Made by a program: the position numbers and the translations under genes. Of a stretch of 64,000 nucleotides of DNA, positions 2,831 through 40,856 are shown piece by piece (the first letter of the stretch is position 1; the number at the start of each line of letters is the position of its first letter). This stretch comes from Patescibacteria group bacterium (GTDB taxonomy: Bacteria; Patescibacteriota; Minisyncoccia; Phycocordibacterales; Phycocordibacteraceae). A model generated the notes under the pieces. That model had not been told where the DNA came from and ran no database searches. It saw only the letters and a program-made list of their open reading frames with translations. The DNA lies in contig JBBTSZ010000002.1 in assembly GCA_038064495.1 (NCBI GenBank), positions 216,934 through 280,933 on the forward strand, in the 5' to 3' direction.

Positions 2831-2961
2831 CGTGAGTTGCGCGGGGATCAGAATCTTCCTATACAAGGCACGGGGAAGTATCCGAAGTAGGCGTATATGG
2901 TATACGACGGATGAGGGTGCTGGGACCCGTAACGAAGTAGAGAAAGATTCTGGCCATGTGC

Positions 2962-3909
2962 CTAGCGGGTCATGAGCCACTGGTAAATATCTTCCAAAGC
3001 CTTCACTGCATCTCCCGCAGCAATATTGTTTTGATGATAGAGCTCGTCGGTACAATCACCTGCAGCCCAGATGCCCGCAATGCTCGTGTGTTGGTTCTTT
3101 GGATCGGTAACGACACGGCCGACACTATCAAGTTCAAGGAAGTCTTTCGCAAAGTCAGTGTTTGGCATCACACCAATTTCTACGAACACACCTTCTACCG
3201 CGAGTGTGGTTTCAACACCTGAGTCGCGGTGCTTCACTTTGAGACCTGTTACAAACTTCTCACCGAGCACCTCGGTTGGCTCACTCTTATAGATAACCTT
3301 GAAGTTTGGATTCTTGGTAAGACGCTCCACCGTAATTTCGTCCCCTTTGAGTGCATCATGACGATGGATGAGCGTAACGCTCTTACAGTAGGCAAGGAGC
3401 TGAGCGGCCGTTTCTAGACCTGCGTTCCCGCCACCTACGACTGCGACATCAAGATCTGCATAGAGAGGTCCATCACAGGAAGCACAATAGGTGACTCCTT
3501 TGTTTTCAAATACGTCAGCACCCGGAATAGCGAGCTTCCTGCGAGCGGCACCAGAAGCAACAAGGACGGAACGTGCAGAAAGGACTTTCCCATCACGAGT
3601 GGTGACTTTAAAAGCACCGTTATCCTTCTCTAGTTTTTCCACTCGGTCACCTTCTACAACTTCTACAATCTCTCCTTTATATGCCTCAAGGTGTGTCTTG
3701 AAGGAATGAGCGAGCTCACTCCCGGGGATTTTAATCGTACCAATCCAGTTTTCAATTCCTTCTGATACGGTGGACTGTCCACCGATTTCTTCTGCTATTA
3801 AAACAGACTTGAGACGCTTACGCGCAGCGTAGACACCGGCGGACACACCCGCGGGTCCTCCGCCAATAATGATGAGGTCATGCATAGTCTCCCGAGTATA
3901 CCAAAACAC
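2962..3909 (-). CDS. trxB: thioredoxin-disulfide reductase
   Basis: GGGPAGVSAG FAD motif, CASC redox dicysteine, VVGGGNAGLE NAD motif. Confidence 0.9.
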   Translation of the reverse strand: MFWYTRETMHDLIIIGGGPAGVSAGVYAARKRLKSVLIAEEIGGQSTVSEGIENWIGTIKIPGSELAHSFKTHLEAYKGEIVEVVEGDRVEKLEKDNGAFKVTTRDGKVLSARSVLVASGAARRKLAIPGADVFENKGVTYCASCDGPLYADLDVAVVGGGNAGLETAAQLLAYCKSVTLIHRHDALKGDEITVERLTKNPNFKVIYKSEPTEVLGEKFVTGLKVKHRDSGVETTLAVEGVFVEIGVMPNTDFAKDFLELDSVGRVVTDPKNQHTSIAGIWAAGDCTDELYHQNNIAAGDAVKALEDIYQWLMTR

Positions 3910-5911: not shown

Positions 5912-7078
5912 TTATGGCAAGAATTGCTTGATAAATCGCTCAAATGAACTTCCAAGCCCACTAAATTTATGTGTCTTCGGAGTTTCGGTGTCGCCGGTAA
6001 GGCCCCAGAGTGCAAGACCGTAGGCAACGGCCCACATCGCGTCGCGGACTTTACTATCGGGAGCAACGCGCATGTCTGCGGTGCGTGAGGGAAGTGAAAG
6101 TGCGTTTTTTGCAATATCAATAATAGAAGCCTGTCCGCTTCCACCTCCAGAAATAATAATGCCGGCAGGAAGCACCCCTTTGCGTCCGAGCACTTTCAAA
6201 TGTTTATCAATGAGTTCAAACATCGTGCGCACTCGTGAAGCGATAACTTCTTCCACTTTCTTTCGTGGATACATAGAACCGCCAAGACGACCAAGTTTGA
6301 GACGTTCTGCGTCTTCAAGTGACATCTTAAAACCGAGTGCAAGGTCATCGGTCACATTACTGGAGCCAACCGGGAACACTTTTACGGAAATCGGTACTCC
6401 TTCGTCGTGCACCACAATAGAAACGGTTTCAGAGCCAATGTTTGCAAGGACACAGCCCTTCATTTTCTGGTCTTTCGTGAGGATGACGTAGGAGCCCGCA
6501 AGTGGGGAAGCCATGCGGTCAATGACCTCAATATCAGCAGCTTCGGTGGCAAGCGTGAGCGCCTGCTCGTGCTGAGCAAGGCAGGTAACAAAAAGATAGT
6601 CGGCCTCAAGACGCGTACCCTTCATGCCATGGGGTTCGCCAAGTGATTTCACTCCGTCCACACGGAACTCAAGTGGGATTTCGTGGAGAATTTTTTTATT
6701 TAAAAAATTGGGGGCAGCTGCCTCACGTGCAGCTTCACGTGTCTTCTCAATATCAAGTTCGGTAATCTCCTGGTCAGCGCGAGAAATGATGGTGGTTCCT
6801 GAAGCACGAGTTTCATCAAGCGAGACGCCTCCAACAGCGAGGAACCCTTTCTTAATAGGAAAACGCGCCATCTGTTCTGCCTGGTGCTTTGCTTGCCGCA
6901 CACTTTGCGCGACGTCTTCAATATCTACCACATAGCCGTGGCGCATGCCGGACGTAGCCGCAAGACCGGTACCAATGATTTGAACACCCCCGCCTTCAGT
7001 AGCAGGGAGCTCCTCTATCACCACGACCTTCGTGTGATGCGTTCCGATATCAATGCCGGTCGTGATACGCCTTGCCAT
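5912..7078 (-). CDS. ftsA: cell division protein FtsA
   Basis: Actin-like ATPase; IDIGTHHTKVVV N-terminus; located upstream of ftsZ. Confidence 0.9.
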   Translation of the reverse strand: MARRITTGIDIGTHHTKVVVIEELPATEGGGVQIIGTGLAATSGMRHGYVVDIEDVAQSVRQAKHQAEQMARFPIKKGFLAVGGVSLDETRASGTTIISRADQEITELDIEKTREAAREAAAPNFLNKKILHEIPLEFRVDGVKSLGEPHGMKGTRLEADYLFVTCLAQHEQALTLATEAADIEVIDRMASPLAGSYVILTKDQKMKGCVLANIGSETVSIVVHDEGVPISVKVFPVGSSNVTDDLALGFKMSLEDAERLKLGRLGGSMYPRKKVEEVIASRVRTMFELIDKHLKVLGRKGVLPAGIIISGGGSGQASIIDIAKNALSLPSRTADMRVAPDSKVRDAMWAVAYGLALWGLTGDTETPKTHKFSGLGSSFERFIKQFLP

Positions 7079-7469
7079 CAGGAGGTACTAGATTAATAAA
7101 ACGCTGAAGCAGCGCGCGTTCTTGCTTATCCATTGTAGCGCTGTGTGACATCCCCTTCAAATGCAGTAAACCGTGGATAAAAAGAAAACCGACCATCGCA
7201 GTGTAGGAAAAGCCATAGGAGCGAGCTTGTGAGCGCGCTACCTCAGGACAAATGATAATTTCGCCGCTTTTTTTACCACTTTCGTACGACAGTACATTCG
7301 GAACGTACTCTTTATTCCGTAAACGTTTGTTGAGTGAGCGCGCTCGAACACGTCCGGCAAACACGAGTGACAACTCCCAACTAGGAAGCACGGCTTTGAG
7401 AGCCTTTTCGTACGGGAAGGAGGGAGTTTTTCCTTTCGTGAAGTTTCGAATATCCAATTCTGCTTTCAT
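7050..7469 (-). CDS. ybeY: rRNA maturation endoribonuclease YbeY
   Basis: HGLLHLKGMSH zinc-binding H..LH..G..H motif; overlaps the ftsA start by 29 nt. Confidence 0.8.
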   Translation of the reverse strand: MKAELDIRNFTKGKTPSFPYEKALKAVLPSWELSLVFAGRVRARSLNKRLRNKEYVPNVLSYESGKKSGEIIICPEVARSQARSYGFSYTAMVGFLFIHGLLHLKGMSHSATMDKQERALLQRFINLVPPDGKAYHDRH

Positions 7470-7493
7470 GTATTTTGAATGTGTCTACGCAGC

Positions 7494-7577
7494 TTCAGAT
7501 GCGAGGCGCGGGAAGCTGAGGAACGCAAACGTATTCAGTATACGATGGAGTGAGGAAGCGGGACCCGCAACAAAGCA
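7494..7577. repeat. copy A of a roughly 85-nt repeated element (ttcagatgcgaggcgc...tatacgRtg...gcaacaaagcag), directly 3' of rpsU
   Basis: Shares a 16-mer, a central motif and a 12-mer terminus with the element at 12565..12647. Confidence 0.6.
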
Positions 7578-7601
7578 GCTGGAGCTGCTAGGCATGTTCA
7601 A

Positions 7602-7862
7602 CTAGCGGCGGCCTTTCGTTCGTCTTGCTGCCGGATCAATCTTTCCGAGTTTGACGAGCTCGTTGTATTCTCGCTTGCGCTCACCGGAAACGAGGGCGCG
7701 AGCATGGTCTACGTTCTTAGACTTCTGTCGGATGTAGTAGCGCTTCTTGCGCATCATGCGCACGAGGTTAAGCCCCTGCGCCCTGCGGGAGAAACGGCGA
7801 ATAAGCGAGGCTGCGCTCTCGTTCTTACCGCGACGCACCTCAACGCGTGTAGCGTTTGTCAT
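7602..7862 (-). CDS. rpsU: 30S ribosomal protein S21
   Basis: VEVRRGKNES..LIRRFSRR...RKKRYYIRQKS matches the bS21 pattern V.V..NES..AL.RF.R....R.KR.Y.K.S. Start trimmed to the internal Met. Confidence 0.65.
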   Translation of the reverse strand: MTNATRVEVRRGKNESAASLIRRFSRRAQGLNLVRMMRKKRYYIRQKSKNVDHARALVSGERKREYNELVKLGKIDPAARRTKGRR

Positions 7863-7973
7863 ATAAGCAAGAGAATAGCATACGGAGGCCGTTTTCTGCA
7901 ACCAAGCCCTAAATTGACACAGTTAGTGAGATACAGCAGGATGCGGGAGGAAGCTCATTGTAAGGAGGAAACG

Positions 7974-8816
7974 ATGAATATAGAGAATCCAGGTCGGGTT
8001 TTCGACCTTTCCTACGTTCCTCCTCGCAAGAAGGGGAAGAACAAGAAACCACCTGAGTTGGTTTTTACGACAACCTTCAACCACGGTCAAAAGACGGAGG
8101 AATGCATTTTTGAGAGTCGTATCTTTGAACGCGTCTCACCAGAGATATATTTGAAGACAAAAACACATTGGTCAGGTCAGCAAGCTGATCTATTTCCAGA
8201 AGTTCACGGACGCGGGTTTGGATTTGGTGGATGCGGATATGTTGTTGAGGCTGAAGACTTCCGTGAATATCATCTGCCACTGACTCCAACAACGGTGTAT
8301 CACGTCGCACTCACCGTTCATGTTTTCAGCATGGCTCTTGACTGGGTCACCACTGACGAAATGAAGGCTGAAAATAAGTCGAATCGTTTTCAGTTACTTA
8401 CGTTCGAGACATGGTGTGTTGCAAACAGGCAAGCGGGATGGGGACATGCTGTCCACGGTTCTGTCTTCCCAGCTTTTCGTCGGTGGCTAACGCTCACTGC
8501 CGAGAAGATGGATGAGAATTCCTCAATTTCTGAGGCAGAAGCGACGATGCGTACGGTATACAACTATCTGGGACATCCACTGGGAATGGGTTTCAATGAC
8601 CAATGTCGTGCGCGCCTGTATACCGACGGACGCTTTATTCTTGAATGTCCGGGTGATGCCTGTGATGTGGCTATTTATCCTGATTCTGACTATGGAGCCG
8701 AATCCGATATACCCACACCGTTTAGTTGTCACAACCTGGATCATGCTTGGCAGCAGCTCATTCTGCTTTCCGGACTTGCTGTTTTGCACGAGCTTGCGGT
8801 GAAGGACCTCGGCTGA
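7974..8816 (+). CDS. hypothetical protein (280 aa); start set at MNIENPGR behind the GGAGGA RBS
   Basis: The upstream part of the longer ORF overlaps rpsU. Strong RBS gtaaggaggaaacgATG; terminator follows. Confidence 0.5.
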   Translation: MNIENPGRVFDLSYVPPRKKGKNKKPPELVFTTTFNHGQKTEECIFESRIFERVSPEIYLKTKTHWSGQQADLFPEVHGRGFGFGGCGYVVEAEDFREYHLPLTPTTVYHVALTVHVFSMALDWVTTDEMKAENKSNRFQLLTFETWCVANRQAGWGHAVHGSVFPAFRRWLTLTAEKMDENSSISEAEATMRTVYNYLGHPLGMGFNDQCRARLYTDGRFILECPGDACDVAIYPDSDYGAESDIPTPFSCHNLDHAWQQLILLSGLAVLHELAVKDLG

Positions 8817-8824
8817 AAACTCTC

Positions 8825-8855
8825 GCCCCGCGCAGTGCGTGGGGCGTTTTCTTTT
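8825..8855 (+). terminator. hairpin CGCCCCGCGCA/TGCGTGGGGCG plus TTTTCTTTT
   Basis: Stem-loop plus T tract immediately after the 8816 stop. Confidence 0.6.
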
Positions 8856-8873
8856 GCGTACATAAAAATGTAA

Positions 8874-8901
8874 GGCCCGGTCGTCGAATGACGACCGGGC
8901 C
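8874..8901 (-). terminator. perfect 12-bp hairpin GGCCCGGTCGTC-gaat-GACGACCGGGCC downstream of the 8912..9388 gene
   Basis: Inverted repeat seen in the sequence. Confidence 0.5.
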
Positions 8902-8911
8902 CATATTCAAT

Positions 8912-9388
8912 TCAGCGTATCCGATGATACAGACAGCCCACCCCATTTCCGACAATCGTCATGCCGAGTATGAAGAACAAAAAACCTTCATCGTGGATGT
9001 GGAGCGCAGCAAGCACCGGCCAGACCTTGTTCAGCCAGAAGACCAGAATAAGTGCGCAGGTGACTGAAAAGCTCACATACAGGATGGTTCGATTTTCGAA
9101 CTTCCGCTTGTATTGACCCTCGGTGGCTCTGCGCATGGCGAAAAAATGAAGGACTGCCGGAACGACGAGTCCGATAACAACCGGAATCTTCCAGTAGACG
9201 AGTGGTTCAGCTGTAGTTGCGAACAGGACCTTGATGATCCAGAAGGATAGTGCGACAACCATAAAACCAAAGCCGATAGAGAAGTGGCCGACTGCAGGTG
9301 TGATGCGATCGAGTAGTGAGGACCTTCTTGAAATGAGCATAATCCATCTCCCAGACACTACCGGACCCCGGTGTGTTTCTAGCGACAA
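8912..9388 (-). CDS. integral membrane protein, hypothetical
   Basis: Four predicted hydrophobic helices. Confidence 0.45.
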   Translation of the reverse strand: MSLETHRGPVVSGRWIMLISRRSSLLDRITPAVGHFSIGFGFMVVALSFWIIKVLFATTAEPLVYWKIPVVIGLVVPAVLHFFAMRRATEGQYKRKFENRTILYVSFSVTCALILVFWLNKVWPVLAALHIHDEGFLFFILGMTIVGNGVGCLYHRIR

Positions 9389-9418
9389 TTATACCCTCTT
9401 AAGTTATTTTGTCAAAAA

Positions 9419-10564
9419 TTACACAACCGCACGGAGTCGATCTATGAGTGAATCAAGTGGAATAAACGTTTCGGTGTGGGTAGAGCGCTCGCGCAGAATG
9501 ACGGAGCGTTCAAGGGCTTCCTTGCGTCCCATAATAAGGAGGTACGGAGGATTCAAATTGTCGGCAAAGCGCATTTGCTCGGTAAGTGACTCAATACCAA
9601 TGGCCTGGGTCATCGGAATGCGCGCATGACGAAGCTGGTCAGCCATCTTCATGCTTTCACGCTTTGCTTCCTCGCCAATATGTACGAAAACAAAACGAGG
9701 ATGTTTCGTTTCTTTCGGAGCAACGACCGCAGAACGTTCTTCGGTTGCAATATGAATGACCGCACCCACAGAAGAGAAACTGTTCTTAAAGAAATGCTTT
9801 GAAAGCTCAGTGTAGCGAGAGCCCCATGCCTGAATGGACGCATCGGTGAGTATTTCAAAACACGTTTCCGACCAGGACATGCCACGAGAAAGAATATCGG
9901 GTGCGAGTTCGTACGGCGTATCCGTTGCTTCAAGGTATTCAAGGACACCTTCAAAGTGTTTTCGGCTTGCTTCAGAGAGGTGATCCGTTGGGGAAGGAAT
10001 ATCGCATTCGAGTCCCTCACATTTCGTGAGGCGCTCAGCAGCCTCAAACACGTCGGTGCGTGCGCAGGTGACGCAATCAGCAGGAAGGATTGGTCCGTTC
10101 TTTCTGAAGAAGGTGGTGAGTTCGCGTGCAAAGCGACTTCGCGTCTCCTTGTCTCCCATAGAGTTGAGGCGAAGACGCGGCTCGTGTTTCGTGATGTCTC
10201 CAATGAACGAGCGCACCGCGCGAATGAGTACGGCGTCAGCAATCGCGTGGTCCACACCAAAGGCATGAAACTGTACGACGATGCCTTTCGGCGACGTGCG
10301 ACCCGGTGCAATGTTTGTGTGCCAGAGAAAGACGGGGGAAAGGGTAGACGGAGCAATACCGTTGTCGCGCATTTGCTTGAGAAGACCTGCGACATCGCGT
10401 GCTGCTGGGTCTAGCTTATCAAGGTTGATACTCTCAGGGTGAGCACCCTTAGTCTTCGTTCCTTTTTTCTTAGAGGAGAGTGAAGCAAGCGACGAGAACC
10501 CATAGTAATTTCCGACGGCATGTGCCCGGCGGAGTATGTCAGTTGGGCTCGCGATGGTACTCAT
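9419..10564 (-). CDS. histidyl-tRNA synthetase-like protein (HisS/HisZ family), divergent
   Basis: Motif-2-like QFHAFGVD, RGMSWSETCFE (like RGLDYYtgtvFE), and a C-terminal anticodon-binding-like segment FVFVHIGEE...YLLIMG. No clear motif 1. Confidence 0.45.
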   Translation of the reverse strand: MSTIASPTDILRRAHAVGNYYGFSSLASLSSKKKGTKTKGAHPESINLDKLDPAARDVAGLLKQMRDNGIAPSTLSPVFLWHTNIAPGRTSPKGIVVQFHAFGVDHAIADAVLIRAVRSFIGDITKHEPRLRLNSMGDKETRSRFARELTTFFRKNGPILPADCVTCARTDVFEAAERLTKCEGLECDIPSPTDHLSEASRKHFEGVLEYLEATDTPYELAPDILSRGMSWSETCFEILTDASIQAWGSRYTELSKHFFKNSFSSVGAVIHIATEERSAVVAPKETKHPRFVFVHIGEEAKRESMKMADQLRHARIPMTQAIGIESLTEQMRFADNLNPPYLLIMGRKEALERSVILRERSTHTETFIPLDSLIDRLRAVV

Positions 10565-11193
10565 TGCGGTTCGGTTACGGCGCCGGGTAGCGTGCCCACT
10601 TTGTTGAAAGGAAGGAGGCGCAGATACGCGCGTCCCATGATATTTGCTTTTGGTAGAGGGCCCCAGATACGTGAGTCGCTACTGCGTGGGCGGTTATCAC
10701 CCATGACGAAGTACTGTTCAGTACCAAGTGTGGTGTCCTGGGTGTACGTAGCGTCTTCAGCGACGACGTAGGACTCGTTCAAGGTCACCGTAGAACCATC
10801 CGTCTTGGTGACGGTGGTCTGCCCATGGTCTATGTGTACGGTCTCACCAGGTAGACCAATGATGCGCTTAATATAGAAGACGTTTGGGTCTCCCGGATAG
10901 CGGAAAATAATCACGTCACCACGTTTTGGTGCAGAAAAATGATAGGAGAACTCATCCACGATGAGATAATCAGAACTTTCAAACGTCGGATGCATTGATT
11001 CGCCTTCAACCACGAATGGTTGTGCGACGAACAAACGGATGGGGACGACGATGATAACAGCGAGAACGATGAACGTAAGAATCTCCTTGAACGCGCTCTC
11101 GAGGAACTTCATGTGAGGGTATTGTAGTCTTAGTTTTCTTTCCGTCAAATGTTGCGCTCGCGATGTTTGATTTTGTGGTACGCGTCGCCTCAA
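10561..11193 (-). CDS. lepB: signal peptidase I
   Basis: GESMHPTF (catalytic Ser box), GDNRPRSSDSRIWGP box E, N-terminal TM helix. Confidence 0.85.
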   Translation of the reverse strand: MRRRVPQNQTSRAQHLTERKLRLQYPHMKFLESAFKEILTFIVLAVIIVVPIRLFVAQPFVVEGESMHPTFESSDYLIVDEFSYHFSAPKRGDVIIFRYPGDPNVFYIKRIIGLPGETVHIDHGQTTVTKTDGSTVTLNESYVVAEDATYTQDTTLGTEQYFVMGDNRPRSSDSRIWGPLPKANIMGRAYLRLLPFNKVGTLPGAVTEPQ

Positions 11194-11376
11194 TCAGCGA
11201 CTCGGCACGCTCACTCTCGCTGCAACAAATGTGCTCGCAGCCGCCTTTCGGCTCGCACATTACCATGCTGTTGCAGCTGCGAGAGCCCACAAAATCAAAC
11301 ATCACTCGCTTCGGGGCACTGTCTATTGGACGCTTCAGTGAGACATGCTAGGTTCTAGCTAGAAAGGAGGCGTACA

Positions 11377-11538
11377 ATGTCTGACAATAAACGTACTCTG
11401 CAAGAAATTGCAGATGATTCCGGTCTCTCGAAGACTGAACTGACCAAACAAGCTATCAGTCTGCTTGCAAGCGCTGACACACCTGAAAAGCGTGCCCAGA
11501 TTATTAGGTTGGCAAGCAACGACTCTCTTGAAGAATAG
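11377..11538 (+). CDS. small hypothetical protein (53 aa, MSDNKRTLQEIADDSGLSK...)
   Basis: RBS gaaaggagg 7 nt upstream; followed by a perfect terminator hairpin. Not in the ORF track (<60 aa). Confidence 0.35.
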   Translation: MSDNKRTLQEIADDSGLSKTELTKQAISLLASADTPEKRAQIIRLASNDSLEE

Positions 11539-11557
11539 TTTCAATTTTGAAAACAAT

Positions 11558-11590
11558 GAGGCGGCCATGTGGCCGCCTCAAGTCTTTATA
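11558..11590 (+). terminator. palindromic hairpin GAGGCGGCCA-tg-TGGCCGCCTC
   Basis: Perfect 10-bp stem 20 nt after the small-ORF stop. Confidence 0.55.
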
Positions 11591-11843
11591 GTGCGGAGAG
11601 TATTTGCCCGTGGAGCCACGCCTTGGCCAACGTGGCTTGTGCATCGGTGAGTTCGGCTCGATGAACGAACTGCGCATTAATGCTTACCGCACGATCACCT
11701 TTCGTAAGGCGCGGGTTCGTCTCGAACCACCCGACGAAATCGTTAGTCGAAAAAATCCGGAGCTCAAAACGCTTTTCATCCGGTTGCACACCAGTACCTG
11801 ACCGCACGTATAGATCATGAGAAGCAAGATCTTTCATCACCAT
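11586..11843 (-). CDS. hypothetical protein (85 aa)
   Basis: ORF only; no recognisable family. Confidence 0.3.
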   Translation of the reverse strand: MVMKDLASHDLYVRSGTGVQPDEKRFELRIFSTNDFVGWFETNPRLTKGDRAVSINAQFVHRAELTDAQATLAKAWLHGQILSAL

Positions 11844-11913
11844 TCTCCCTGGAGCTATTCCAAAGTCTAAGTATAACAGTCACCGCGGACCCGTTACTAA
11901 ACGAAATGGTAGT

Positions 11914-12519
11914 ATGGCGGGAATGGCATACGTCATCATCGGTCTCGGAAATCCGGGAAAAGAATACGCAAAAACACGCCACAACGCGGGACGTATGGCG
12001 GCGGAGAAACTCCAAAAAGAATTTGGCTTTGATGATTTTGCGCTTCGTAAGTCGGCGCAGTCACTGGTGAGCGAAGGAGCGATTGAAGGCGAGAAAGTAG
12101 TGCTTGTTCTTCCTGAAGTGTTTATGAATCTTTCTGGGAAAGTCATTCCAAGTTTTGTAAAAAGCAAACCAGCTGCAAAAAAATTACTCATCATTCGCGA
12201 TGAGCTTGATATGCCACTTGGCACTATGAAAATGACCTTTGGACGGGGAAGTGGAGGACACAAAGGTGCTGAGAGCATCATGCGCGCACTCAAGACAAAA
12301 GAGTTTGCTCAAATCAAGATTGGTATTTCAGGATCCACAGCAAAAGGTAAGGTAAAGAAACCAGGGAGTGAAGAAAAAGTTATTAAGCACGTGATAGGGA
12401 AGTGGAAGCCGGAGGAAGAAACGAAACTCAGGAAGATGTTGAAAAAAACACAAGAAGCAACGGAACACTTCATTGCCGGAGACATAGAAAAAGCGATGCT
12501 CGTCGCGAATACAAAATAG
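11914..12519 (+). CDS. pth: peptidyl-tRNA hydrolase
   Basis: GLGNPGKEYAKTRHNAG N-terminal signature; C-terminal Lys-rich extension. Confidence 0.9.
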   Translation: MAGMAYVIIGLGNPGKEYAKTRHNAGRMAAEKLQKEFGFDDFALRKSAQSLVSEGAIEGEKVVLVLPEVFMNLSGKVIPSFVKSKPAAKKLLIIRDELDMPLGTMKMTFGRGSGGHKGAESIMRALKTKEFAQIKIGISGSTAKGKVKKPGSEEKVIKHVIGKWKPEEETKLRKMLKKTQEATEHFIAGDIEKAMLVANTK

Positions 12520-12544
12520 AAAAATGCCCCAATGGGGCATTTTT
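12520..12544. terminator. bidirectional hairpin AAAAATGCCCC-aat-GGGGCATTTTT between convergent pth and rpsA
   Basis: Perfect stem flanked by A/T runs on both sides. Confidence 0.7.
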
Positions 12545-12564
12545 CTATAGGACTCTCAAAAAAT

Positions 12565-12647
12565 TTCAGATGCGAGGCGCTGGCGAGGAGCGAAGCGAGT
12601 CGTATGTGCTATACGGTGAGCTGCTACCTGCGCCAGCAACAAAGCAG
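12565..12647. repeat. copy B of the roughly 85-nt repeated element, directly 3' of rpsA
   Basis: Same 16-mer ttcagatgcgaggcgc and terminal gcaacaaagcag as copy A at 7494..7577. Confidence 0.6.
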
Positions 12648-12671
12648 GTGAAGGATTTTTGAGAGGACTAC

Positions 12672-13799
12672 CTACTTCTTTTTTGGGTCGACATAGGTAA
12701 GTGTCATTCGCTGGTCCTTCGGCTCAAAGAGCGTGATGGTGAAGGGATAACTCTTGCCAAGTTCAAGTGACTCGCGTAATGCAGCAGGGGAGTCGAACTC
12801 ACTGATGTGGACGAGTCCAGCAACACCCTCCTCAATGGAAGCGAGTGCACCATGCTTGTTGTACTTGATGATGACACCGGAAACTTCCATACCCTTCTTG
12901 TAGCGATCGCTTGCGGTCTTCCATGGGTTCTCCTTGAGTGCCTTGATGGAAAGGGAAATCTTTCCGTCTTTGATCTCAATTACCTTTACGGAGACCTTGT
13001 CGCCAACGGTGAAGAGGGTACGAGGGTCTTCCACAAGGCCCCAATCAAGCTCGCTGATGTGCACGAGGCCTTCAAGACCCTGCTCGAGCTTTACGAAGAC
13101 ACCGAAGTCAACAGCTCCCGTTATCTCACCTTCAATCACGTCCCCAACTTGGTACTTATCAATGAGGTTTGCTTTCTCCTGCTCCTCGTCGCCTGCGCGC
13201 TCAGAGAAGATAAGTTTTCCTTCCTTAGCATCTGCCGTGATAATGCGGACCGGAAGGGCAACACCGACAAGCTTGAGAAGTTCTCCAAAGATTTTTTCTT
13301 TGTCTCCCTCAGGTACACGTGGGTAGTGCTCCTTAGCAAGCTGACTTGCTGGGAGGAAGCCCTGGATACCTTGCCATGAAAGGATGAGGCCACCTTTGTT
13401 TGCTTCTTCAACGGTGAGGTTGTAGACCACCTGTCCTGCGATAGCCTGTTCAGCTTCGCCCCAGATAGCAGCCTGACGAGCTTCCTTAAGTGAAAGTTCG
13501 ATGTAGCCATCAATGCCCGCAGCGTCAACGACTTTTGCCGTGATGAGGTCTCCTGGGTTTGCTTTACGAAGGACGTCAGCAGCGTTGAGGTACTCGCGAC
13601 CATAAATGATGCCGGTACCAAACGGTGGCAAGTCTACGTAGAGGCGTCCACGAACAAGCTCAATAATAGTGCCCTCCACCAAATCACCGGGACGCGGTGG
13701 GGTAGGGATGCTCTCAATAAGCCCCGCCATCGGGTGCTCAGGAGCAAGTACAATAGTGTTGACCACCAAAGGCGCGGCCTTCTTCTCTTCAGTTTCCAT
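12672..13799 (-). CDS. rpsA: 30S ribosomal protein S1 (short, about 4 S1 domains)
   Basis: Repeated S1/OB motifs (GDLVEGTI..., GDVIEGEI..., GMEVSGVI...). Confidence 0.8.
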   Translation of the reverse strand: METEEKKAAPLVVNTIVLAPEHPMAGLIESIPTPPRPGDLVEGTIIELVRGRLYVDLPPFGTGIIYGREYLNAADVLRKANPGDLITAKVVDAAGIDGYIELSLKEARQAAIWGEAEQAIAGQVVYNLTVEEANKGGLILSWQGIQGFLPASQLAKEHYPRVPEGDKEKIFGELLKLVGVALPVRIITADAKEGKLIFSERAGDEEQEKANLIDKYQVGDVIEGEITGAVDFGVFVKLEQGLEGLVHISELDWGLVEDPRTLFTVGDKVSVKVIEIKDGKISLSIKALKENPWKTASDRYKKGMEVSGVIIKYNKHGALASIEEGVAGLVHISEFDSPAALRESLELGKSYPFTITLFEPKDQRMTLTYVDPKKK

Positions 13800-15213: not shown

Positions 15214-15573
15214 ATGGAAACTCGTCGCGTCCACGAAGTCGTCCATGGTCTCCGCCAGAAACCGGAGCATGTGCGGGAGCGCATTGCCCTTCTGACCGCT
15301 GCCGGTAGCACCCTTGTCGTTGCACTCGGTTGGTTCGGTGTCATGAGTACGACGGGAGCTTTTTCTCTTGCACCAAATCTTCCCGCAAGCGACATTGCGC
15401 AAACGAAATCAAGTGTGACTGACGAGACGAACTTCAAAGCGCTTCTTGGAGCTGCGGGAGCTGCGATGGGAGCAACTTCTACCGCGCCAAACATTAAAGT
15501 CGTTGATACCAAGTCCTACTCCACGCTTGATGCGCCAACCCCCCCGCAAGATCAGACCGTCATTCATTTTTAA
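15214..15573 (+). CDS. small membrane protein, hypothetical
   Basis: One TM helix (LLTAAGSTLVVALGWFGV); 3-nt spacing after the preceding gene. Confidence 0.4.
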   Translation: METRRVHEVVHGLRQKPEHVRERIALLTAAGSTLVVALGWFGVMSTTGAFSLAPNLPASDIAQTKSSVTDETNFKALLGAAGAAMGATSTAPNIKVVDTKSYSTLDAPTPPQDQTVIHF

Positions 15574-15709
15574 GAACATGCCTAAAAATTCCATCTGCTT
15601 CGTTATGGGTCCCCATCACCTCATCCGCCGTATAGCACATACGTCTACTTCGGTGACGTACCTATGCCTCGCATCTGGAGCTTTTTTGGCATGTTCTAGC
15701 TAGTTATTT

Positions 15710-21638: not shown

Positions 21639-22319
21639 ATGACACATTTCCGTACCCTACTCACCGGCATTTCAGCTGTGGCGCTTCTGTTTATCGTTAA
21701 CGTTCCGCATGCCCTTGCACAAACAGCAACCAATAGCTCAGCACCCATAGACCAGCTGGGTCAATTCTTACAACAGTTCATTCGCTTTTTTGACCTCTAT
21801 CTGGTCCCGCTCATATTTGCACTCGCCTTCATCGTGTTCTTGTGGGGCGTCTATCGGTACCTCATTCTTGGTGCTGACAACGAGGAGAAACGTCAGGAGG
21901 GTCAAAAGTTCATCATGTATGGCCTTATCGGTTTCTTCATCATGATTTCAATTTGGGGGATTGTTAATTTACTTGTCGGTTCGCTTGGTTTCGGAAATGA
22001 TCAGCGTCCCAATCTTCCGACCTTCGGTTCACCCTCTCAATCAGGAAGTAACGGTTCAAAGATTCTTCCAAGCAGTCCGTCAGTAAACACGACTGGATCT
22101 GCCAATACGAGCGGAGGTTCTGTTACCCCGGGAAACACGTCTACAGACTGTCGTTCTGACGGTGTGTGTCCTGCTAACACCGTTTGTTCGTTTAGCGGTA
22201 CGCAAGCAGGGCAATGTATAACCACGAACCCTCAAGATTGTCGTCTTCCGAACACAGCCTGTCCTTCAGGATACGTGTGTAACGCAAACAATGGTCTCTG
22301 TAAATTGAATTCAATATAG
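21639..22319 (+). CDS. pilin-like paralogue P3 with a C-terminal Ser/Thr/Gly linker and an 8-Cys extracellular domain
   Basis: Module AFIVFLWGVYRYLILGADNEEKRQEGQKFIMYGLIGFFIMISIWGIVNLL, then CRSDGVCPANTVCSFSGTQAGQCITTNPQDCRLPNTACPSGYVCNANNGLC. Confidence 0.6.
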   Translation: MTHFRTLLTGISAVALLFIVNVPHALAQTATNSSAPIDQLGQFLQQFIRFFDLYLVPLIFALAFIVFLWGVYRYLILGADNEEKRQEGQKFIMYGLIGFFIMISIWGIVNLLVGSLGFGNDQRPNLPTFGSPSQSGSNGSKILPSSPSVNTTGSANTSGGSVTPGNTSTDCRSDGVCPANTVCSFSGTQAGQCITTNPQDCRLPNTACPSGYVCNANNGLCKLNSI

Positions 22320-22415: not shown

Positions 22416-22775
22416 ATGAAGAAACTCGGCTACACTCTCGCAGCTTTTGCCACGCCTTTTCTTGCGTTTGCACAGGTGCAAACCATTAATGACGCAGGTA
22501 GAATCGTGATTGATATCATTAACAATGTTGCGGTACCTATCGTATTCGCACTCGCCTTCATCGTCTTTATCTGGGGTATCTTTCGATACTTCGTTCAAGG
22601 AGGACACGACGAGGAAAAACGTGAAGACGGTAAGCAGCTCATGCTCTGGGGCCTCATTGGTTTCTTTGTCATGGTCTCGGTGTGGGGCTTAATCCACATC
22701 CTCATTGGAACCTTCAACTTGAACCCAGCTATTCCAAATTATCCAACCGCACCGTATACCACGAAAGGACGCTAG
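22416..22775 (+). CDS. pilin-like paralogue P4
   Basis: AFIVFIWGIFRYFVQGGHDEEKREDGKQLMLWGLIGFFVMVSVWGLIHIL; signal peptide ending AFA-QVQ. Confidence 0.6.
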   Translation: MKKLGYTLAAFATPFLAFAQVQTINDAGRIVIDIINNVAVPIVFALAFIVFIWGIFRYFVQGGHDEEKREDGKQLMLWGLIGFFVMVSVWGLIHILIGTFNLNPAIPNYPTAPYTTKGR

Positions 22776-25359: not shown

Positions 25360-25441
25360 GCCCAGGTGGTGAAATTGGTATACACGCCTGCCTTAGGAGC
25401 AGGTCCCTTCGGGGGTGGAGGTTCAAGTCCTCTCCTGGGCA
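25360..25441 (+). tRNA. tRNA-Leu (anticodon TAG), type II with long variable arm
   Basis: Acceptor GCCCAGG/CCTGGGC, anticodon loop CTTAGGA, T-arm GGTTCAAGTCC; hand-folded. Confidence 0.75.
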
Positions 25442-25740: not shown

Positions 25741-25816
25741 TGGTGCGCCCACCTGGGCTCGAACCAGGGACCTTATCCTTAAGAGGGATCTGCTCTACCG
25801 ACTGAGCTATGGGCGC
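25741..25816 (-). tRNA. tRNA-Lys (anticodon CTT), CCA encoded
   Basis: RC reads GCGCCCATAGCTCAGTCGGTAGAGC...anticodon loop CTCTTAA...GGTTCGAGCCC...GGGCGCACCA. Confidence 0.8.
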
Positions 25817-27042: not shown

Positions 27043-27128
27043 TGGTACCGGGGGCGGGACTCGAACCCACACGACATCGCTGTCTGAGGTGTTTAAGACC
27101 TCTATGTCTACCATTCCATCACCCCGGC
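27043..27128 (-). tRNA. tRNA-Leu (anticodon TAA), type II
   Basis: RC: GCCGGGGTGATGGAATGGTAGAC...stem GAGGT loop CTTAAAC...GGGTTCGAGTCCCGCCCCCGGTACCA. Confidence 0.8.
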
Positions 27129-27327: not shown

Positions 27328-27399
27328 AGGCCCGAGCGGGAATCGCACCCGCGCATCGAGGATTTGCAGTCCCCTGCGTTACTACTTCGCCATCGGGCC
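27328..27399 (-). tRNA. tRNA-Cys (anticodon GCA), U73 discriminator; unusual T-loop (TGCGATT)
   Basis: RC: GGCCCGATGGCGAAGTAGTAACGC...anticodon loop CTGCAAA...GGGTGCGATTCCCGCTCGGGCCT. Confidence 0.7.
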
Positions 27400-27745: not shown

Positions 27746-27868
27746 ACGAGAGTGTGTTCAAAAATCTTCCCAGGCGCGGAGCGAACGAGGAACGGAGTGA
27801 GACGTATAGGTGATACGTTGAGCGAGTCCCGGAGTGAGCGACAAAGCATGGGGAGATTTTGGGACATA

Positions 27869-29374
27869 CTATGATTCCACCATGCGGAAGGCGACCAAAG
27901 TATCCCCACCCGCCACCTCAGCCTTAGTCTCAATTTGAAGACCAAACTCCCCTTCTGTGTGAATGTTTGTAACATCCGCGCGCGCCACCTGCAGGTTCAC
28001 GAGCTTGCCACGACCAAGGTCAATGCCACGTCGGTCAATCTTTACGAGGTCGTTAAGTGAGAGGGAACCCGATACCCATTTTGCGCCAAGCACTGATTTT
28101 CCACTTGCCGTACTAAACACTTTCAAAACTTTTGCCTCGCCGAGTATTTCTTCGGTGATGATGCGCGGAGCTGCTGCTAGCACCAATTTCTCAACCTGTT
28201 CCTTAAGGTCGTAAATGATAGAAAACGTGTCTATAGAAATCCCACTTCGCTCCGCAAGGTCACGCGCGGTTGAATCGGTTGGAACATTAAAGCCAATGAT
28301 GCGCGCGGTAGAGGCCACGGCACTTTTCACATCACCCTCAGAAACAGCACCAATGCCTTCTGACACAATGCGGATTGAAACGCGGTCGTGTGAAATTTTC
28401 GCAAGCTCATGCTTGATGGCCTCAACCGTTCCGGTCACGTCAGCTTTGAGCACGAGCGCAAGGGAAACCTTTCCTTCGGTTGGACCGTCAATCTGGGTAC
28501 GGAGAGGAACATTCGCGAGCGTGGTGAGTTTTTCAGCCTCCTTCTTTGAAGAGATCATTACGAACGGTGTGCCTGAAGGTGGGAGTGTGCTCCATCCAGC
28601 GATGCGTACTGGTTGACTGAGCGTTGCGGACGTAATACGTGCTCCAGCAAAGTTCTCAATGAAGCGCACAGGAGCGCTTGCTCCACCCGCAACCACAAAC
28701 GAACCGGTCGTGAGCGTACCGTTTTTAATGATGAGGGTTGCCGTGAGTCCTTGCTTCGGATCTTGTGAAGACTCAAGCACAAAGCCTTCTGCAGGCACAC
28801 CCCGGTCTCCCGTGAGTTCAGACAAGTCAGCGGTGAGGAGCACGAGGTCAAGCAGTTCCGGAACACCGTCTCCAGTCTTTGAAGAAACCCCGACATATGG
28901 AATGCTTCCACCCAGACCTTCCAAATAGATTTCGTGTTCAAGCGCGGAAACTTTTGCGCGCTCAATGTCTGCTCCTGCTTTATCTATCTTAGTGAAGGCA
29001 ACGACGACCGGAGTACCCGCTTCTACGGCCGCCTGATACGCCTCAATGCTTTGTGGTTTGATACCTTCCTCTGCCGCAATCACGAGAATGGCAACATCGG
29101 CTACTTTTGCGCCACGCGCACGAAGCGCACGAAAGGCTTCGTGTCCCGGCGTGTCCAGAAAGGTGATATTTCGCTCCACTCCTTCGTGGGTGTGCGATGC
29201 CTCATACGCAGAGACATGTTGCGTAATACCACCCGCTTCACTTGCGGTGACATTTGCCTTACGGATGTAATCAAGCAGGGAAGACTTTCCGTGGTCGATG
29301 TGGCCCATAACGGCCACGATAGGTGGGCGGGTTTCTAAGGCCATAATAGGCAAAGTAGACCACGGAGCTTGCAA
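27869..29374 (-). CDS. infB: translation initiation factor IF-2 (short form, no long N-terminal region)
   Basis: G-domain [26 protein letters not shown]; beta-barrel domains follow. Confidence 0.9.
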
Positions 29375-39995: not shown

Positions 39996-40661
39996 ATGAA
40001 CAAAAACAGCCAGAAAAGCAATTATTGCGAAGCGTGCGGAGATTTCCATGATGCCGGACACGACGGAGCCTCCTTTGTACAGATCGGGGAAGTCATTCCA
40101 GACTACGAGTTTGAAATCTTCCATAAGGACGACCAAAAGACGGTAAAGTTTTCTGACTATCGCGGCAAATGGCTCGTGGTGATGTTTTATCCGGGCGACT
40201 TCACCTTTGTGTGTCCAACGGAGCTTGAGGATATGGCAAAGCTCTATCCGAAGTTTCAAGAAATGAATACGGAAGTACTCTCTTTTTCTACGGACACGGT
40301 CTACGTACACAAGGCGTGGCATGACACTTCTGCCGCTATCAAACAGGTGAACTATCCAATGGGTTCAGACCCGTCTGGTAAGATTTCCTTTGCCTTCGGT
40401 ACGCTTATTGAAGGAGGAGATATGGCGCATACACCAGATGAAGGCCAGTCTCGACGCGGCACATTTGTTATTGACCCCTCGGGAGTGCTTCGTACGATAG
40501 AAATTCATGACAATAGCATTGGGCGGCGCGCAGGCGAAACACTTCGCAAGGTACAGGCAGCGCAGTACGTGGAGGCCCATCCAGGTAATGTCTGCCCGGC
40601 AAGTTGGGAGGAAGGCGACGACACACTGGAACCGGGCATGGATCTTGTAGGTAAGATTTAG
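39996..40661 (+). CDS. peroxiredoxin (AhpC/TSA family) with an N-terminal Cys/His-rich extension
   Basis: FTFVCPTE peroxidatic-Cys motif; WLVVMFYPGDF. Confidence 0.8.
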   Translation: MNKNSQKSNYCEACGDFHDAGHDGASFVQIGEVIPDYEFEIFHKDDQKTVKFSDYRGKWLVVMFYPGDFTFVCPTELEDMAKLYPKFQEMNTEVLSFSTDTVYVHKAWHDTSAAIKQVNYPMGSDPSGKISFAFGTLIEGGDMAHTPDEGQSRRGTFVIDPSGVLRTIEIHDNSIGRRAGETLRKVQAAQYVEAHPGNVCPASWEEGDDTLEPGMDLVGKI

Positions 40662-40856
40662 TGGAAGTAGTCCAAAATATCCGCCACCGTTGTTACGGAG
40701 CCTCTACATCTCCTTCACCGTACCAGCACGGTACGGCTCAGTCGATGTTTTCCCCGTGCCTAGGTGGCAAACATTTATGGAGCTACTTCAGTTGGAATTA
40801 TATTCAAGAAATCAAAGAAAAACGGCGGCCCATGGGGCCGCCGTTCGCGCATCGCA

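Follow-up and report, generated by a model that had tools for sequence, protein, structure and literature searches.

A family of ~125-nt hairpin repeats inserted beside stop codons in a Patescibacteria genome, with a core that recurs across bacterial phyla

Several described systems place a hairpin just after a bacterial gene. REP and REPIN sequences, which are mobilised by RAYT proteins (Y1 transposases of the IS200/IS605 type), are extragenic, multi-copy palindromes that lie just downstream of open reading frames (ORFs) and are presumed to form single-stranded hairpins. REP termini of the GTAG type are reported to provide, in many cases, the TAG stop codon of the flanking ORF, and both REP and ERIC repeats are reported to have roles as terminators and in mRNA stability (PMC3733652). 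A REP is a palindrome of 20-40 nucleotides (nt) or an inverted doublet, and most REP families have been reported from only one or a few species. Larger hairpins are found among the MITEs (miniature inverted-repeat transposable elements). For instance, ERIC/IRU, Correia, RUP and SMAG are imperfect palindromes of 100-170 nt with insertion polymorphism, located in transcribed intergenic regions; their ends are conserved, their middle is variable, and the families are lineage-restricted. How an ERIC copy affects the flanking mRNA varies with the direction in which it lies. Integron attC sites are imperfect palindromes as well, and their functional folded strand is antisense to the ORF whose stop codon they follow. 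Finally, intrinsic terminators, including those with an embedded aptamer such as the thiS/HMP-PP riboswitch (PMC6478431), also put a hairpin at the stop codon. Here, a further, undescribed family of hairpin repeats of about 125 nt is presented. It was found in a stretch of 64,000 nt from a Patescibacteria group bacterium (assembly GCA_038064495.1, contig JBBTSZ010000002.1, positions 216,934 to 280,933), which as a whole is called the window below. The window belongs to a 397-kb contig from the 0.1-µm fraction of a Hainich groundwater sample, and its S1 protein groups with those of Parcubacteria/Paceibacterota.

The original prediction for the window was a unit of roughly 85 nt, present twice, each time directly after a ribosomal protein gene. 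The two stretches, 7494-7577 and 12565-12647, lie where they had been placed. Both are on the plus strand, just past the stop codon of a minus-strand gene (7602-7604 for S21 and 12672-12674 for an S1-domain protein). They begin with the identical 16-mer TTCAGATGCGAGGCGC, which occurs exactly in the window only at 7494 and 12565; with up to three mismatches allowed, it has 4 matches there, compared to 0.67 expected by chance. The central block CGTAT...TATACG and the terminal block GCAACAAAGCAG are also common to both, and each stretch folds into a long hairpin (z-scores of -3.2 to -4.1 relative to shuffled sequence). The element is real, although its size and number had been understated: each stretch is the core of a hairpin of about 125 nt, of which the window holds six copies.

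These copies were located using a covariance model, R1, which was built from homologues and run on the window with filters off. Six hits were returned, and the next best match reached only 13.8 bits. The copies, W1 to W6, represent lineage-specific insertions of defined length and fixed orientation, starting +1 to +3 past an ancestral stop codon that is mostly TAG. In each of them the matched part is the centre of an imperfect hairpin, and the four units that were measured are 123, 127, 124 and 123 nt long. Folding energies are given below for the structured strand and then for its complement. W1 (2839-2961, plus strand, 123 nt; R1 hit 2849-2951, 63.9 bits; -57.1 and -38.8 kcal/mol) lies directly past the stop of a TrxB/AhpF-like gene (2962-3909, minus strand) and upstream of the native terminator of that gene; its limits were taken from a comparison with the empty site in a relative, L124. 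W2, which contains the first of the two predicted stretches, spans 7475-7601 on the plus strand (127 nt; R1 hit 7487-7589, 83.9 bits; -59.7 and -42.6 kcal/mol), with limits from the empty sites in L122, L124 and L125. It fills the spacer between the S21 and YbeY genes almost wholly, and its structured plus strand is antisense to both. W3, which contains the second stretch, spans 12548-12671 on the plus strand (124 nt; R1 hit 12558-12658, 91.1 bits; -57.4 and -48.3 kcal/mol), and in its outer stem a tract of six A pairs with a tract of five T. W4 (15574-15696, minus strand, 123 nt; R1 hit 15584-15686, 68.5 bits; -48.2 and -43.4 kcal/mol) is located between the TAA of an ORF of 119 amino acids (aa; 15214-15573, plus strand) and gyrA (15710, plus strand); here it is the minus strand that is structured, and the outer stem is similar to the one in W2 (GAACATGCCTA). 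W5 (27751-27870, plus strand; R1 hit 27760-27860, 63.5 bits; -53.9 and -31.7 kcal/mol) abuts the TAG of the IF-2 gene (27869-29374, minus strand), with an overlap of 2 nt into the stop codon. The most divergent copy, W6 (40664-40789, minus strand; R1 hit 40674-40778, 45.9 bits; -67.5 and -51.7 kcal/mol), starts 2 nt past the TAG of the AhpC gene (39996-40661, plus strand) and has a convergent PyrE-like gene on its other side. The limits of W5 and W6 are approximate and follow the extent of the stem.

Evidence for insertion can be found in relatives of this genome. Four were compared (L122 to L125), in which S1 is 85-91% identical and gene order is kept; the trxB site was compared in L124 and L125 only. 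The sites between the S21 gene and ybeY, between the 119-aa ORF and gyrA, and between the S1 gene and pth are empty in all four relatives, and the trxB site is empty in both of those compared. A search with R1 finds no copy in three of the relatives and two in L122, at other sites; one of these is a private copy at +1 past the gyrA TAG. Because relatives this similar lack the element at the same sites, the copies are insertions. An independent assembly of the same species, L121, has identical intergenic lengths, so the gaps in the window are not assembly artefacts.

The filled and empty sites can be compared to the nucleotide. In the relatives the 119-aa ORF and gyrA are separated only by TAA or TAG, 1-3 nt and ATG; in the window, 123 nt have been inserted directly past the TAA. 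The S21 gene and ybeY lie 11-43 nt apart in the relatives, with a small ordinary terminator between them; the element in the window runs from +1 past the TAG and fills the spacer. At the S1 and trxB-like sites the relatives have a stop codon, a spacer of 7-12 nt (7 nt between S1 and pth) and a terminator, and in the window the element stands between stop codon and spacer while the native terminator is retained. At S1 this is the bidirectional intrinsic terminator at 12516-12548, common to pth and the S1 gene. A terminator scan places it on the far side of W3 from the S1 stop codon, as had been predicted, and its homologues are present in the relatives. This terminator is native and does not belong to the repeat, and it shows that W3 entered between the stop codon and a terminator that was already there. 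The flanking proteins have kept their C-termini and stop positions. Two other origins were considered, insertion of the core alone into the loops of terminators already present and copying of the outer stem from the target flank. Both were rejected: the empty sites contain no outer-stem sequence, and W2 and W4 have similar outer arms.

The placement of the copies follows the ends of genes. In all six window copies, a distance of 0-2 nt separates the 3' end of the structured strand from the stop of an opposite-strand gene, the hosts being the genes for the TrxB/AhpF-like protein, S21, S1, the 119-aa protein, IF-2 and AhpC. Five of these stop codons are TAG and one is TAA, against a background in the window of 19 TAG, 17 TAA and 11 TGA. 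For the lineage, the flanking stops are TAG in seven cases, TAA in one and TGA in none. About 10% of the non-coding TAG/CTA triplets in the window are true stop codons, and a placement of six out of six is more specific than "TAG plus gene avoidance". Four of the six copies lie within strings of co-directional genes; in the two that were checked, the next start codon is 5-13 nt away. A replication-strand cause for the orientation was rejected, since the orientation flips with the neighbouring gene inside the window.

Homologues from other genomes form two classes by core length. The long class, with cores of 74-83 nt, includes the window copies and corresponds to the form of roughly 100 nt; the short class has cores of 57-63 nt. 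Among the 69 long copies, 42 have a convergent gene on the 3' side and 9 a co-directional one. For 39 of these 42, the convergent stop codon falls between -5 and +14 nt relative to where the model hit ends, which is the base of the outer stem or a position inside it. Short-class copies show no rule of placement relative to stop codons, and a minority of copies, for instance in L116 and L119, have the opposite orientation. A weak degenerate copy (25 bits) at L122:16994-17085 is also an exception to the antisense rule: it lies directly past the ybeY TAG, with its structured strand co-directional with the gene. At the loci from the Candidate Phyla Radiation (CPR), most neighbours serve translation or transcription (KhpA, S12, S6/S18/SSB, LepA, GreA, RpoC), and GAPDH and PilT are found as well. 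The link to ribosomal proteins is incidental, because window copies also follow the genes for IF-2, the TrxB-like protein, AhpC and the 119-aa protein. The association is with gene ends, probably those of highly expressed genes.

The fold is conserved. In the RNAalifold layout of 18 long copies, the order from the outside in is an outer stem P1, a two-by-two loop GA/GA, a UGC/GCA helix, internal loops GA-G-GC and AA-C-AAA, a stem P2, and an apical hairpin P3 of the form CGUAY-loop-RUACG. P1 has about 24 bp of variable sequence. The core itself is asymmetric, with tandem G·A pairs, the UGC/GCA helix and the purine-rich internal loops 5'-GA-G-GC / 5'-AA-C-AAA. An extra inner helix, P2b, was recognised by inspection and covaries (GGAGC/GCACC, GGACC/GGACC or GGAUG/CACCC). 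In an R1 alignment of 123 copies, 90.5% of the cells pair, compared to 67.2% in shuffles, and none of 500 shuffles reaches the observed value. Slid controls reach 24-42%. Changes on both sides are seen in 25 of the 27 pairs, and the covariation score is 0.511 versus 0.151. The alignment was fitted to the model, so its pair counts favour the model somewhat; counts based on MAFFT give the same pairing pattern. The middles of the two predicted stretches, suspected to be partly compensatory, are truly so by this layout and these counts. Even the apparently invariant core undergoes compensatory swaps in variant copies, UGC/GCA becoming UAC/GUA and GC/GC becoming AU/AU or AC/GU. W1 is such a variant, with UAC/GUA and AC/GU. 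What is left of near-constant single-stranded sequence is, 5' and 3' respectively, NA-G-GC and AA-C-RAA. Between CPR genomes, copies that occupy one site are 4-9 compensatory pairs apart, a difference that agrees with selection in situ, with more than one insertion into that site, or with one copy having replaced another.

This fold is conserved on one strand only. In all six window copies the structured strand folds better than its complement, by 5-22 kcal/mol. Across the 123-sequence alignment there are 221 G·U pairs and 39 A·C oppositions, and the inner part of P1, in 116 distinct sequences, has 127 and 29. The outer arms, which W2 and W4 have in common, provide an example: the 5' arm of W2 has three transitions, all of which keep pairing on the structured strand only. 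The conserved loops, including the tandem G·A, are purine-rich on this strand. Mutation bias associated with transcription was rejected as the source of the asymmetry, as by reasoning it predicts the opposite direction.

Some copies also have features of terminators. A run of A and a run of T, each of at least four, flank the inner stem in 33 of the 69 long copies, and neither W1 nor W2 has them. A simple terminator scan of the window made no call on any of the six elements. The apical loops differ from stable RNA tetraloops.

The element is not a coding repeat, as had been stated, since core length, at 57-83 nt, does not come in multiples of three. If the TAG of the trxB-like, S21 and IF-2 genes is read through (W1, W2 and W5), the frame stays open for 36-38 codons, through the whole element. 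In the other three window copies the corresponding frame closes after 2-15 codons. The open frames are probably a by-product of the shared sequence.

Further copies had been proposed as a check on the original prediction, and they are numerous. An exact-pattern scan (ATGCGAGGCGC, a gap of 35-65 nt, then GCAACAAAGCA), in which one genome per species was searched, found at least 119 genome contigs with the core CAG-AUGCGAGGCGC...GCAACAAAGCA-GAUG, and these belong to many phyla. By record title, these include Patescibacteria/Saccharibacteria, Thermodesulfobacteriota and other "delta" groups, Aminicenantes, Acidobacteriota, Chlamydiae, Verrucomicrobiota/Kiritimatiellia, Planctomycetota, Burkholderiales, Clostridia/Eubacteriales and Sphingobacteriales. 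Two listed entries are not titled simply as uncultured metagenome-assembled genomes (MAGs): the complete chromosome of Sporomusa aerivorans DSM 13326 and a record labelled as a Maridesulfovibrio isolate. The same pattern has no match in 2.9 million viral contigs, and a BLAST search of plasmids gave only chance matches. Among the 119 matches listed, 23 are within 100 nt of the end of the locus. Some genomes have many copies. The Chlamydiae MAG K940_chlam_7 (L001, L005, L014, L020, L067, L102, L105 and L115) has at least eight near-identical hairpins of about 190 nt with the short core. Several of its contigs start or end within this hairpin, so the repeat seems to break the assembly.

The homologous loci also show some variety in form. 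The K940_chlam_7 hairpins make up two subfamilies, with compensatory differences in the outermost stem. MAGs of Aminicenantes, Eubacteriales and Thermodesulfobacteriota have the short-class core hairpin as a branch within a unit of about 290 nt (L002, L011, L032, L040, L052, L107, L112, L114, L118 and others). This unit has TA-flanked inverted ends, TAACCTGGATTATTCA...TGAATAGTTCAGGTTA, and an inner inverted repeat of 14 bp, TAAAAAATGTCGAT/ATCGACATTTTTTA, around about 100 nt of variable AT-rich sequence. Its ends covary between subfamilies, as in TAACCCGCTTATTTCA/TGAAATATGCGGGTTA, and it resembles a MITE flanked by TA, or else a larger RNA with the same module inside. Copies can be tandem, about 40 nt apart (L016:3327-3427 and 3468-3567), or follow each of two consecutive genes (L065:1832-1932 and 3747-3849), where both ends of lepA are flanked. 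L004 has three model hits. Two long hits, L091:76-265 (190 nt) and L025:6397-6520 (124 nt), have a large insertion in the apical hairpin and could be nested elements or a longer variant.

No Rfam family accounts for these copies. At the gathering threshold, Rfam 15 matches only tRNAs in the window; a permissive search of 7000-13000 (E<=10) gives no match that overlaps the elements, and 20 homologous loci give only tRNA and SSU rRNA hits. A full-text literature search found no description of the element. K-turns, hammerheads, domain IV of SRP RNA, boxA and domain V of group II introns were compared by inspection; these were resemblances only, and none fits the core. No protein family recurs as a neighbour, as the ORFs within 2.5 kb of the 119 listed loci cluster only into generic families.

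Each of the systems introduced above shares some properties with the element. Like REP sequences, it is extragenic, multi-copy and palindromic, and it follows stop codons in six of six window copies and abuts one in 39 of the 69 long copies; the GTAG terminus that doubles as a TAG stop is the nearest precedent for such placement (PMC3733652). It differs from REPs in its length of about 125 nt, its asymmetric core, the spread of this core across phyla, and the structured strand being antisense to the ORF. A GTAG/CGTC tag at a fixed position is absent from the 69 long copies, with a maximum of 2 per position, and no RAYT was seen among the 28 window ORFs scanned. Hairpin MITEs are of similar size, and presence/absence polymorphism is found here too: four window sites are empty in relatives, and L122 has its private gyrA copy. 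A TA target is possible as well. However, the arrangement is reversed, with variable ends and a conserved middle, and insertion is at +1 past a stop codon. The antisense folded strand is shared with attC, but the element lacks the R and L boxes (RYYYAAC/GTTRRRY), a cassette array and an integrase, and its neighbours are housekeeping genes. A test for the attC core site was negative: the invariant AAC belongs to an internal loop and faces GAGGC, not GTT. With intrinsic terminators, about half of the copies share A and U tracts that pair around the inner stem. The other half have no tracts, native terminators stand beside two of the copies, and the stem-loop greatly exceeds an ordinary terminator in size and contains a conserved core.

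The reading that best fits these comparisons is a non-autonomous MITE- or REP-like mobile hairpin with a deeply conserved recognition core, now resident in terminator-like positions; we favour it with moderate confidence. Of the three options first put forward, a tiny MITE-like repeat is the closest, given the multiple copies, the empty sites in close relatives and the recurrence across phyla. The hairpin would spread through a single-stranded intermediate of the structured strand, either single-stranded DNA (ssDNA) or RNA. The conserved core would be the recognition site of a widely distributed putative enzyme that acts in trans and is not encoded adjacent to the element. Joining may take place beside the 5'-TAG/TAA-3' of the coding strand, which would fix the orientation. 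After insertion, the element would be co-transcribed, the upstream mRNA then carrying its complementary and weaker hairpin at the 3' end. In this place it would probably act as a terminator, a 3'-end stabiliser or an intercistronic hairpin, aided in about half of the copies by the A/U tracts.

Several observations weigh against a mobile hairpin. Among the 28 window ORFs scanned there is no gene for a transposase, integrase, reverse transcriptase or Y1/HUH enzyme. The termini are not conserved, so the usual inverted terminal repeats are missing; the ends pair within each copy, with no terminal sequence common to the copies, and the outermost stems differ except between W2 and W4. Both junctions bear TA or TAR in only 3-4 of seven sites. 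W3, W4 and the gyrA copy of L122 have TA (in the form of TAG or TAA) on both sides, W2 and W5 possibly do, and W1 and W6 do not; a target duplication is unproven from these junction sequences. In IS200/IS605 and REP/RAYT the hairpin is recognised on the same strand as the 5' target, whereas here it is on the opposite one. A preference for TAG combined with purifying selection does not obviously give six placements out of six. Finally, the identity of only 46-70% among W1 to W6 fits a structured element under maintenance better than a young burst of transposition.

Such divergence also speaks for a functional molecule. The structured strand could be an RNA or folded ssDNA kept by selection on the host, for instance a convergent small RNA or a protein-binding decoy that ends at the A/U-tract terminator, and mobility would then explain only where the copies came from. 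This is unlikely as the full explanation, and yet it keeps substantial weight, because the structured strand is antisense to the gene that sets the position, four of the six copies lie in co-directional strings, divergence is too great for a recent burst while fold and core are kept in all copies of one genome, and 4-9 compensatory pairs separate same-site CPR copies. Also in its favour are strong, strand-specific covariation, the purine-rich conserved loops, and a U tract that follows the inner stem in about half of the long copies. A small RNA gene, present in two copies, was among the original suggestions and is weakened by the promoter search: a sigma-70-like pair was found upstream of 3 of 65 copies, at no enriched position, and the window scan found no site. 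With four of six copies in co-directional strings and only 5-13 nt to the next start codon in the two checked, a promoter would have to sit within coding sequence. In addition, the outer stem lies beyond the U tract and so outside a terminated RNA, the apical loops are unlike stable RNA tetraloops, and relatives do without the element at the same genes.

Function could also reside in the mRNA-sense strand, as a cis-acting element of the 3' untranslated region (UTR) or the intercistronic space of the upstream message. It could be a terminator, a protection from 3' exonucleases, or a hairpin at the stop codon that couples translation. We consider this slightly less probable again. Position and orientation are tied to the upstream stop codon in six of six window copies and 39 of 69 in the long class, A-tract/U-tract pairs surround the inner stem in 33 of 69, the flanking genes are mostly highly expressed housekeeping genes (S21, S1, IF-2, S12, S6/S18, KhpA, LepA, GreA, RpoC), and REP and ERIC repeats are reported to act in this way (PMC3733652). 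However, the mRNA-sense hairpin is systematically weaker and bears A·C mismatches, its conserved loops are pyrimidine-rich, native terminators persist downstream of the trxB-like and S1 genes, and the minority of copies in L116 and L119 is oriented the other way. Moreover, a plain terminator or stabiliser needs no core shared across phyla. The narrower form of this idea, a 3'UTR element of ribosomal protein mRNAs, is disfavoured by the neighbours of the other four window copies (TrxB-like, IF-2, AhpC and the 119-aa ORF), and also by the constrained strand, which is the complement of those mRNAs. Nor does ribosomal protein autoregulation agree with LepA, GreA, RpoC, GAPDH and PilT as neighbours and a structured strand that is antisense. 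Very improbable, by contrast with these, is a folded single-strand recombination site for a tyrosine recombinase or HUH enzyme, similar to attC or a phage attP hairpin, in which the position after ORFs would reflect a cassette-like organisation. Its appeal lies in the attC-like position past an ORF stop, the imperfect palindrome of similar size and the antisense structured strand. But the RYYYAAC...GTTRRRY boxes are absent, with the invariant AAC facing GAGGC; the flanking genes are essential housekeeping genes in conserved synteny rather than cassettes; and no integrase is found among the scanned window ORFs or the recurrent neighbours of the listed loci.

The genes on either side of the two copies first noticed are as follows. 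Next to W2 are the YbeY gene (7050-7469, minus strand) and the probable S21 gene (7602-7862, minus strand). The label rpsU for the latter is provisional, as its match to TIGR00030 is weak (E=0.0056, below cut-off) and it has no Pfam hit; the homologues of 86 aa in relatives likewise have no Pfam hit on record. Its sequence points to a divergent S21. W3 is flanked by the gene for the S1-domain protein (12672-13799, minus strand) and the Pth gene (11914-12519, plus strand).

Other repeats and RNA genes are present in the window. A direct repeat of 156 nt is located at 21803-21958 and 22532-22687, its copies 72% identical and 729 nt apart; it is part of a region that encodes several small T4SS-pilin-like proteins (PF18895) in relatives. 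Four tRNA genes lie within about 2 kb, at 25360-25441 (plus strand), 25744-25816, 27046-27128 and 27328-27399 (all minus strand), and the last of these is about 350 nt from W5.

A more far-reaching possibility, which we put forward tentatively and hold to be clearly less probable than the mobile hairpin in its general form, is that the family represents an undescribed class of mobile structured elements. In that case, an enzyme present in many phyla would recognise the purine-rich core in a single-stranded hairpin and join the ~125-nt unit to the 3' edge of a stop codon in fixed orientation; or else the antisense hairpin would be a functional RNA or ssDNA with a conserved partner. If true, Rfam 15 has missed a structured element of Patescibacteria, Desulfobacterota, Chlamydiota, Acidobacteriota, Clostridia and other phyla. 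In the streamlined genomes of the CPR this element fills whole intergenic regions, and it is also found at contig breaks in metagenome assemblies. Its nucleotide-exact, orientation-fixed placement at stop codons suggests a novel joining activity, which would be of mechanistic and possibly technical interest. Since the family is present in a complete genome from a culture collection, that of Sporomusa aerivorans DSM 13326, it is directly accessible to experiment.

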